IMG/VR virus record: IMGVR_UViG_3300025732_000020
Span: 1-64,000 of that record
Strand: one strand, 5' to 3'
Length of the DNA: 64,000 nucleotides
Source of the DNA: a virus
Position numbers and translations under genes: made by a program. Within the stretch, counting starts at the first letter, position 1, and every line of letters begins with the position of its first letter. Positions 4,440 through 8,886 of the stretch are shown here, one piece after another. The notes under the pieces are model-generated. The model was not told the origin of the DNA and made no database searches. It saw only the letters and a program-made list of their open reading frames with translations.

Positions 4440-4515
4440 GCCTCTATAGCTCAGTGGCCAGAGCACTCGCCTTGTAAGCGAGCGGTCCTCGGTTCAAATC
4501 CGAGTGGGGGCTCCA
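4440..4515 (+). tRNA. tRNA-Thr(UGU), CCA encoded
   Basis: Cloverleaf; anticodon arm CTCGC-CT TGT AA-GCGAG. Confidence 0.95.
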
Positions 4516-4587
4516 CGGGATGTAGCGCAGCGGTAGCGCGCCTGCTTTGGGAGCAGGATGTCGCAGGTTCGATCCCTGCCATCCCGA
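4516..4587 (+). tRNA. tRNA-Pro(UGG)
   Basis: Cloverleaf; CCTGC-TT TGG GA-GCAGG. Confidence 0.95.
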
Positions 4588-4634: not shown

Positions 4635-5081
4635 ATGGCAATCAATTACTCCCTCTCAATAGGATCCGTAAAGAAAAGACTCGTAGAAAGAGAGTTTAGC
4701 GATGTGGTTATTGAAGCAAACTTTAGTGTATCGGCATTTTCTGACGCTGTAACCGAGATCAATGGAGATGGCGATGAGGTAATCGTAACCCCTTCCTTTT
4801 CTTATTCATGTAGTGGAACTAGACAATTCCCTGTTAGTGAAATTGATCCTGAAACATTTATCCCATTTGAACAGATTACAAAAGAAACTGTCGTTGAGTG
4901 GCTTCTCGCTGGAGAAGGGGTGGAATCTATAGAAGACTTTTCATATGTAAAGAGTTGTGTTCAGAATGTTGCTCAGAGGATTTATGAATACTCTCAAGAG
5001 GTTCCCGCATTTGTACCTGGTCAAGATCCTTCTGGTTCCTCAGACGCTGAATATGTTCCCACTGAACCGTCAGACGGTTGA
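4635..5081 (+). CDS. Hypothetical acidic phage protein (possibly tail-associated)
   Basis: FIPFEQITKETVVEWL motif; GTTTAAAG motif upstream at 4602. Confidence 0.7.
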   Translation: MAINYSLSIGSVKKRLVEREFSDVVIEANFSVSAFSDAVTEINGDGDEVIVTPSFSYSCSGTRQFPVSEIDPETFIPFEQITKETVVEWLLAGEGVESIEDFSYVKSCVQNVAQRIYEYSQEVPAFVPGQDPSGSSDAEYVPTEPSDG

Positions 5082-5106
5082 CGATCCAAGGTTCTTCTGA
5101 TAGAAT
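5078..5106 (+). promoter_or_regulatory. Sigma70 promoter of the tRNA-Arg/Asn/Gly operon
   Basis: TTGACG-17 nt-TAGAAT with extended -10 TG. Confidence 0.8.
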
Positions 5107-5206: not shown

Positions 5207-5280
<74 letters not shown>

Positions 5281-5388
5281 CTGGAGATCTGGAAATGTCT
5301 GGATCTCTTCTAAATCCTAGGGGGATTCTTCTAGGTCGGGGAATTGATCACCTCCGTTATAGGGGGAGTCCTCTAACACTCCCCACCA
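5281..5388 (+). ncRNA. Four-hairpin spacer RNA ending in a microhelix plus ACCA
   Basis: Hairpins at 5283-5308, 5316-5335, 5337-5356 and 5363-5384, then ACCA. Confidence 0.5.
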
Positions 5389-5389
5389 T

Positions 5390-5461
5390 TCCACAATAGC
5401 TCAGCGGTAGAGTCGGTGACTGTTAATCACTTGGTCCCTGGTTCGAATCCAGGTTGTGGAG
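5390..5461 (+). tRNA. tRNA-Asn(GUU)
   Basis: Cloverleaf; GGTGA-CT GTT AA-TCACT. Confidence 0.95.
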
Positions 5462-5560
5462 TCGGTAGTCGTTAGGCAAACAGCCTAGAAAGACGCCGAG
5501 ATCATCAGATGCCGTTTGGTAGTTTCCATAGTCTGATGTGGTAAAAATTGAAACTACCCT
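5462..5560 (+). ncRNA. Spacer RNA: extended hairpin plus H-type pseudoknot
   Basis: CATCAGA/TCTGATG stem whose loop sequence GGTAGTTTC pairs with downstream GAAACTACC. Confidence 0.55.
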
Positions 5561-5561
5561 T

Positions 5562-5632
5562 GCGGGCATGGTGTAGAGGTAACATCTCAGCCTTCCAAGC
5601 TGCAGTCACCGGTTCGATCCCGGTTGCCCGCT
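5562..5632 (+). tRNA. tRNA-Gly(UCC)
   Basis: Cloverleaf; CAGC-CT TCC AA-GCTG. Confidence 0.93.
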
Positions 5633-5683
5633 TCCCCACAGCATATTGTGGGGGTTCATTTGACCAATAATTATTAAAAAATA

Positions 5684-8840: not shown

Positions 8841-8885
8841 GGGTAGTCTGCGCTGGAAAGATAAACCAGAATGCCGCTACCCACC
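8841..8885 (+). ncRNA. Small acceptor-stem-like hairpin RNA
   Basis: GGGTAGT/GCTACCC-ACC outer stem with inner CTGG/CCAG hairpin. Confidence 0.4.
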
Positions 8886-8886
8886 T

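Follow-up and report, generated by a model that had tools for sequence, protein, structure and literature searches.

The window analyzed here, a stretch of 64,000 nucleotides, is the leading 64 kb of a 135-kb virus record in IMG/VR. Ten plus-strand tRNA genes, called by ARAGORN and Rfam, lie between positions 4440 and 10072, and the window also encodes a ferredoxin, an AdoMet decarboxylase, an SLH-domain protein, and a Pol-gamma-type DNA polymerase that is 73% identical to its counterpart in cyanophage S-TIM5. The window phage is an S-TIM5-like cyanophage. The element under study is the 108-base gap between tRNA-Arg(TCT) (5207–5280, +) and tRNA-Asn(GTT) (5390–5461, +; ARAGORN and Rfam), folded here as the interval 5282–5389. 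It belongs to a putative transcription unit that runs from tRNA-Arg through the spacer, tRNA-Asn, and a second spacer to tRNA-Gly(TCC) (5562–5632, +; ARAGORN and Rfam), with a predicted sigma-70-type promoter on the 5′ side (5078–5106, +) and a terminator-like hairpin with a U-rich tail on the 3′ side (5633–5654, +; terminator scan). The promoter, recognized purely by its match to the consensus, is composed of TTGACG, 17 nt, and TAGAAT with an extended −10 TG. CCA is not encoded in the tRNA-Arg gene, the trailer of which starts with CU, and the 5′ end of the spacer lies 1–2 nt past the tRNA-Arg discriminator.

The leader of the unit, just 5′ of tRNA-Arg, contains a match to the Rfam abiF RNA motif (RF03085; 5151–5201, +) that scores 39.4 bits against a gathering score of 37. 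Sequence similar to the leader directly 5′ of tRNA-Arg(TCT) is also present in loci L041 and L157, and an abiF RNA match has been reported for cyanophage S-CREM1 (PMC9964418).

The MFE and centroid folds of the spacer both consist of four hairpins with stems of 11, 8, 5, and 7 bp, in agreement with the initial annotation, and these hairpins are unchanged when the whole tRNA-Arg/spacer/tRNA-Asn precursor (5207–5461) is folded. The first three are defined by both the fold and the alignment described below. Hairpin 1 (5283–5308, +) has an 11-bp stem with an apical GGAAAUGUC motif. It is followed by a single-stranded linker, CUAAAU (5310–5315, +; alignment columns 34–39), and then by hairpin 2 (5316–5335, +), in which an 8-bp CCUAG.../...CUAGG stem carries a variable loop. 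Hairpin 3 (5337–5356, +) pairs CGGGG with CCUCG over 5 bp beneath a conserved 10-nt loop, (N)UUGAUC(A/G)C, and the TGATCA (UGAUCA) previously pointed out in this loop is found at 5345–5350. Hairpin 4 (5363–5384, +) is a separate module with a 7-bp GGGGAGU/ACUCCCC stem and the loop CCUCUAAC (in the DNA, GGGGAGT at 5363–5369 and ACTCCCC at 5378–5384, loop CCTCTAAC). Directly after this stem comes the ACCA that had been reported to end one base before tRNA-Asn; ACCA indeed occupies 5385–5388 and a U occupies 5389, with the tRNA-Asn start placed at 5390 by Rfam and at 5389 by ARAGORN. Together, these nucleotides form a 5-nt tRNA-Asn leader, ACCAU (5385–5389, +).

From the single sequence, neither the fold nor the combination of a hairpin with NCCA is better than chance. 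The fold z-score of −1.45 is not significant, with 12 of 200 shuffles as stable as the spacer, and NCCA follows 3 of the 190 perfect 7-bp hairpins in the window, which is the expected 1/64. The case for the hairpins thus rests on comparative data: hairpins 1–3 are real by covariation and hairpin 4 by conservation. With respect to known RNA classes, the Rfam tRNA model RF00005 has no match within 5282–5389 at E values up to 5 (the ten flanking tRNAs score 51–71 bits), ARAGORN calls no tRNA within the spacer, and the Rfam mascRNA model does not match it. As for an intrinsic terminator, hairpin 4 is followed by ACCAUUCC and not by a U run, and the plus-strand terminator scan returned 5633–5654 alone, with nothing at hairpin 4.

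Hairpins 1–3 constitute a conserved module of ~74 nt (72–78 nt). When the neighboring SLH protein was used as bait, 80 related viral loci were recovered, and a BLAST comparison of the spacer with these loci reveals that positions 4–76 recur in many of them, typically between tRNA-Asn and tRNA-Thr. A 21-nt pattern representing the core of hairpins 2 and 3 matches at least 119 IMG/VR stretches, with 78 distinct core variants among the matches listed. We aligned 37 distinct full copies on the three-helix structure. In this alignment 97.5% of the cells pair, and both sides have changed in 11 of the 23 pairs (30 cells in total), including 7 of 12 pairs in hairpin 1; compensatory pairs number two or more in every helix. 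With a covariation score of 0.185, the alignment exceeds its shuffled versions (0.121), and none of 500 shuffles attains that score, a control that overstates independence given that many of the 37 copies are close relatives. The safer control is to slide the 3′ partners by 1–3 columns, upon which pairing falls to 33–67%. The covariation strongly supports the structure of hairpins 1–3, and the comparison as a whole points to clear structural selection on the spacer. Against these covarying stems, almost no variation is seen at the apex of hairpin 1 (GGAAAUGU), in the linker CUAAAU, in UAGGUC, or in the loop of hairpin 3, UUGAUC(A/G)C; constant loops and linkers over covarying stems imply sequence-specific recognition by some partner.

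The 3′ half of hairpin 3 (5346–5355, +) reads GAUCACCUCC, a sequence identical to the conserved 16S rRNA 3′ terminus with its anti-Shine-Dalgarno core. CCUC(C/U) is found at this strand in 3 of the 37 aligned variants, the strand being mostly CCCCC, and we assign mimicry of the 16S rRNA 3′ end low weight; the resemblance is probably coincidental.

The placement of the module was evaluated in 89 distinct contexts among the matches listed, with tRNA ends heuristically refined from ARAGORN calls. The gap from the core to the upstream tRNA falls into two classes, 47–53 nt or 77–78 nt, which places the module start ~2 nt past the upstream discriminator. Of the 89 contexts, 62 have tRNA-Asn as the upstream tRNA. 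On the other side, the next tRNA lies 4–7 nt past the module, or past one to several added hairpin modules that contribute about 50, 58, 71, 98–107, or 170–186 nt. Modules are also inserted and substituted on the 5′ side: 25 variants have an additional hairpin between hairpins 1 and 2, and the place of hairpin 1 is taken by a CUGGAAAGAUAAACCAG module in L207 and by a homologue of the Asn-Gly spacer of the window in L235. The terminal stems of spacer modules stand 4–5 nt from the next tRNA (for example AUUU, UUUC, AUCAA, and CACAA), an arrangement with the same geometry as two tRNAs placed end to end. From the sequences compared, a stem plus ~4 nt and then a tRNA is a general design of these arrays, and ACCAU is one instance of it.

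Other structured units populate the same arrays. The Asn-Gly spacer of the window (5462–5560, +) is a conserved module too, with a close homologue in L235 (~640–755), after tRNA-Thr and fused 5′ of hairpins 2–4, and a partial homologue in L236; L233 is without it, 3 nt separating Asn and Gly. Between tRNA-Ile and tRNA-Met in the window lies a further spacer module (8841–8886, +), in which an outer GGGUAG.../...CUACCC stem encloses a CUGGAAAGAUAAACCAG hairpin and is followed by ACCU. The outer stem is two changes from the acceptor stems of phage tRNA-Tyr genes, whose trailers are CCUU, and copies of the inner hairpin are found in L207 and, inside other outer stems, in L010 and L012; in L007 the Ile-Met distance is only 3 nt. 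A recurrent tRNA-like unit beginning CCUCUGGUAGUCUAUUGGUAAGGAC is present in S-PM2 (L206, 1601–1672) and, as 26 distinct variants, in related loci (for example L087, L118, and L132). It has acceptor, D, and T arms, and its anticodon arm is replaced by a short covarying stem with a GACAA-type loop of 5–6 nt. ARAGORN calls for this unit are inconsistent (Leu-CAA, His-ATG, and Leu-TAA), and the S-PM2 copy, which is unannotated, is unmatched by the Rfam tRNA model at E values up to 1. The unit is probably a non-decoding tRNA-like RNA.

Near-consensus sigma-70 promoters (TTGACA, 17 nt, TAATAT or TATACT) are found in these arrays, directly 5′ of the module or after tRNAs, as at ~3560–3600 in L083/L084 and downstream of tRNA-Thr in L064, L066, and L068. 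Such array-internal promoters suggest that the arrays may be read as several short early transcription units.

Hairpin 4 can be followed across six contexts. A BLAST search of the isolate-phage collection with the spacer has S-PM2, a T4-like marine cyanomyovirus, as its sole match, at 89% query coverage and 88% identity. The S-PM2 copy, at 155004–155110 of LN828717, is unannotated, lies directly after tRNA-Thr, and contains all four hairpins, with compensatory changes in hairpin 1 and with hairpins 2–4 nearly identical to those in the window. Scans of viral and metagenome sequences with the hairpin 4 core yielded four further contexts. In all six, the stem and loop are unchanged, the stem of L233 being one base pair longer (8 bp), and a tRNA or tRNA-like unit follows after 4–5 nt. 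The stems of the initial annotation are thus conserved, those of hairpins 1–3 through covariation and that of hairpin 4 in each context. The ACCA end, which the same annotation expected to be conserved in related phages, is not. The tail is ACCAU before tRNA-Asn both in the window and in L233, which likewise has the order Arg-element-Asn, and the two are one lineage, related by descent. It is ACCU in the L207 type, ACUU in L236, and AAAC in L235, each before tRNA-Ala, and AUAU before the tRNA-like unit in S-PM2. The first A of the tail is constant in all six contexts, and no other base is.

The hairpin 4 loop also defines a wider family. In other spacers CCUCUAA(C/U) is carried by three unrelated stems, UCACUGU/ACAGUGA, UCACUGC/GCAGUGA, and UCGGAAGU/ACUUCUGG. 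Since only ~0.1 perfect flanking stems of at least 7 bp are expected among the 83 occurrences of the octamer, this loop-defined hairpin family is real. Neither CCA nor an adjacent tRNA comes after any of the hairpins on these other stems. A pseudoknot in which the hairpin 4 loop would pair with the GUUAUAGG linker, 7 of 8 bases being complementary in the window, was considered and rejected because the linker is unconserved in L233 and L235.

To place the tail among normal tRNA flanks, we tabulated 1090 distinct tRNA contexts from the related phage loci, again with heuristically refined tRNA ends. A pyrimidine directly follows the discriminator in 93%, the trailer starts with CC in 15% and with CCA in 5%, position −1 is U in 59%, and the commonest short tRNA-tRNA linker is CCUU. 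This composition fits processing by RNase Z and RNase P. At 4440–4587 (+) in the window, tRNA-Thr (4440–4512) is followed by an encoded CCA that directly abuts tRNA-Pro. An exact search of IMG/VR for the microhelix with ACCA returned five unrelated chance matches, in coding regions or terminators.

The distribution of the element is patchy. With a covariance model of the module, R1, the window phage and S-PM2 each yield a single copy, and S-TIM5 and S-TIM54 yield none. The whole spacer is absent from the closest relative found, L007 (SLH protein 91% identical), in which near-identical tRNA-Arg and tRNA-Asn genes are 24 nt apart, and the element is kept in L233. T4 Gp23 is encoded by two of the five large contigs that bear the module, and the Pol-gamma-type polymerase of the window by none of them. 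With the upstream DUF7936 protein as query, no related loci were recovered. The core pattern has no genuine copy in representative bacterial and archaeal genomes, the matches there being 12 chance coding matches in unrelated bacteria and a 413-bp contig (L225, NZ_FBWL01000046.1) of the assembly ‘Clostridium sp. C105KSO13’ that contains S-PM2 element sequence around the matched core. This contig is most likely S-PM2 contamination of the Clostridium assembly. With genome-set matches limited to chance coding sequence or the S-PM2-like contig, there is no evidence for a host source, and a host origin was set aside. The element is phage-specific and accessory, exchanged between unrelated lineages and gained or lost between close relatives, probably by recombination via the flanking tRNAs.

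These observations lead us to favor, as the probable though far from certain explanation, a modular and horizontally exchanged family of spacer RNAs in cyanophage tRNA arrays that is co-transcribed with the tRNAs and excised by tRNA-processing enzymes. Transcription would start at the 5078–5106 promoter and would include tRNA-Arg, tRNA-Asn, and tRNA-Gly. Given the exact tiling between two tRNAs, tRNA processing would release the spacer as a discrete RNA of ~108 nt. On the 5′ side, the cut would be made by the 3′-processing enzyme of tRNA-Arg, which in cyanobacteria would be RNase Z because their tRNA genes are without CCA; on the 3′ side, it would be made by RNase P during maturation of tRNA-Asn, and RNase E might assist at AU-rich linkers. 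The product, if stable, would comprise four independently folding hairpins, of which hairpin 4 would be the 3′-terminal one, mimicking the geometry of an abutting acceptor stem and bearing a short 3′ overhang once RNase P has cut. ACCA would then be the form that the 4–5-nt leader takes in one lineage and not a functional CCA end.

A more modest role would be confined to the precursor. The hairpins could act only in cis, insulating the tRNAs from one another while the CUAAAU and UUAUAG linkers serve as RNase E entry sites, with the RNA degraded thereafter. In E. coli, RNase E separates polycistronic tRNA precursors, and a cis role would be consistent with the exact tiling of the element between tRNAs, with the conservation of AU-rich single-stranded linkers between stable hairpins, and with hairpin folding that is independent of the cloverleaves. 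However, relatives process the same tRNAs without the element, across the 24-nt Arg-Asn gap in L007 and the 3-nt Asn-Gly linker in L233, which speaks against any strict dependence of tRNA maturation on the element in cis. Moreover, loops that are invariant across T4-like and S-TIM5-like phages would be needless for generic insulators. We consider a role restricted to cis unlikely.

An extension of the favored reading, that of an excised and exchanged spacer RNA with a function in trans, is likewise unlikely. Cyanophage arrays could carry a toolkit of exchanged hairpin-module RNAs that are released as trans-acting sponges or decoys; its members may include the four-hairpin element, the CUGGAAAGAUAAACCAG module, the Asn-Gly spacer element, and the non-decoding tRNA-like unit, and their targets could be a host RNA-binding protein, a ribonuclease, or a tRNA-targeting defense. 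If true, this idea would add a new functional class of phage non-coding RNA.

Absence from the closest relative means that the element is dispensable, and it could accordingly be a neutral passenger of recombination, or a decayed tRNA pseudogene, carried along by linkage with tRNA-Asn. Its patchy presence and strong tRNA-Asn linkage would be expected of a passenger, and a pseudogene origin might account for a module of 72–78 nt that sits in a tRNA slot and in which, by inspection of the sequence, AGGUC and a G-rich 5-bp stem resemble a variable loop and a T arm. Set against this, the Rfam tRNA model is silent in the spacer even at E values up to 5, no acceptor stem joins the ends of the module, and compensatory changes and invariant loops over the 78 variants among the matches listed indicate purifying selection on structure. 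Passenger or pseudogene status is in our view improbable.

The reading with the least in its favor takes hairpin 4 and ACCA as an acceptor-stem microhelix, either a substrate of the CCA-adding enzyme or a synthetase, as the initial annotation proposed in the case of aminoacylation, or a decoy for host enzymes attacking the 3′ ends of tRNAs. The resemblance is genuine in part. The stem is 7 bp long, G-C rich, starts with G1-C72, and is two to three changes from phage tRNA-Ala acceptor stems, and the unpaired A after it is discriminator-like in all six contexts. This A is followed by CC in three of the six and by CCA in two, the tail resembles the tRNA trailers that start with CC or CCA, and another stem is followed by ACCU before tRNA-Met at 8841–8886. 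However, four of the six contexts have no CCA, the two ACCAU cases are from one lineage with tRNA-Asn downstream in each, and hairpins with NCCA are as common in the window as chance predicts. After RNase P cleavage an additional 3′ U would remain (...ACCAU), and the 3:70 pair is G3-C70 and not the alanine identity pair G3-U70, the nearest phage tRNA-Ala stems having G-U. Stacking on a T arm is impossible because it is the 5′ strand of hairpin 4, not the 3′ strand, that follows hairpin 3, and the stems of homologous hairpins that share the loop are unlike acceptor stems and are not followed by CCA. The record, at 84% completeness, yielded no CCA-adding enzyme (PF01743). The mimicry idea falls with the unconserved ACCA end, a test set in advance. 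Both a substrate for aminoacylation and a CCA decoy are thereby disfavored, and a decoy for anticodon nucleases, also put forward initially, finds no anticodon-loop mimic in the spacer; we regard an acceptor-stem microhelix as very improbable. What survives is a hairpin in an acceptor-stem-like position with an invariant unpaired A after it. Descent of hairpin 4 from a collapsed tRNA, suggested by the tRNA-Ala stems two to three changes away, is argued against by the same loop on unrelated stems and is retained at most as a possible origin.

The usual view of a phage tRNA cluster is of tRNA genes with junk between them; the spacer described here shows clear structural selection. Rfam 15 holds no family for the element, and our literature searches found no description of it, but a large structure screen of IMG/VR (PMC10690425) may include it as one of its unnamed candidates. 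It is found in more than 100 uncultured cyanophages and in the cultivable S-PM2, exchanged between unrelated lineages, and S-PM2 with Synechococcus WH7803 offers a tractable system in which to address the roles of non-tRNA RNAs in phage tRNA clusters. The comparison across phages also corrects an attractive reading of the spacer as an RNA with a tRNA-like end, the ACCA tail being an unconserved local quirk.

Two known classes of RNA resemble the 3′ end of the element. To our knowledge, aminoacylatable acceptor-stem microhelices are laboratory constructs with no natural genes. Hairpin 4 shares with microhelices of the Schimmel type a 7-bp G-C-rich stem-loop, an unpaired A, and, in this window, CCA, but its CCA is non-terminal because of the extra U and is unconserved, and there is no recognized identity pair. 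Plant mitochondrial t-elements are structures beside genes with ends set by RNase P and RNase Z (PMC1920247). Like t-elements and RNAs of the mascRNA type, the spacer has a stem with a short tail at the position of a tRNA acceptor end; t-elements mimic a cloverleaf or an acceptor stem plus T arm, whereas the spacer is without such a domain.

The element is best described as a putative non-tRNA RNA embedded in a phage tRNA cluster, for which the closest known analogues would be RNA C and RNA D of phage T4 (stable RNA species 1 and 2). These are single larger units of ~120–140 nt. Their existence has been confirmed by Northern blot, and they have been described as ‘RNAs of yet unknown functions’ (PMC9697503). 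The initial annotation had drawn the same parallel, and as an analogy it stands insofar as a structured spacer RNA is tiled between tRNAs; excision is the part predicted from that tiling. In both systems a small non-tRNA RNA lies within a phage tRNA gene cluster and shares its strand; RNA C and RNA D are matured with the tRNAs, as is predicted for the spacer. That S-PM2 was the only isolate phage returned by BLAST argues against close similarity to RNA C and RNA D. Unlike them, the spacer is a string of exchangeable hairpin modules spread across unrelated cyanophage lineages. The role of RNA C and RNA D is a question decades old, and the toolkit of released hairpin RNAs considered above, should it exist, could illuminate it.
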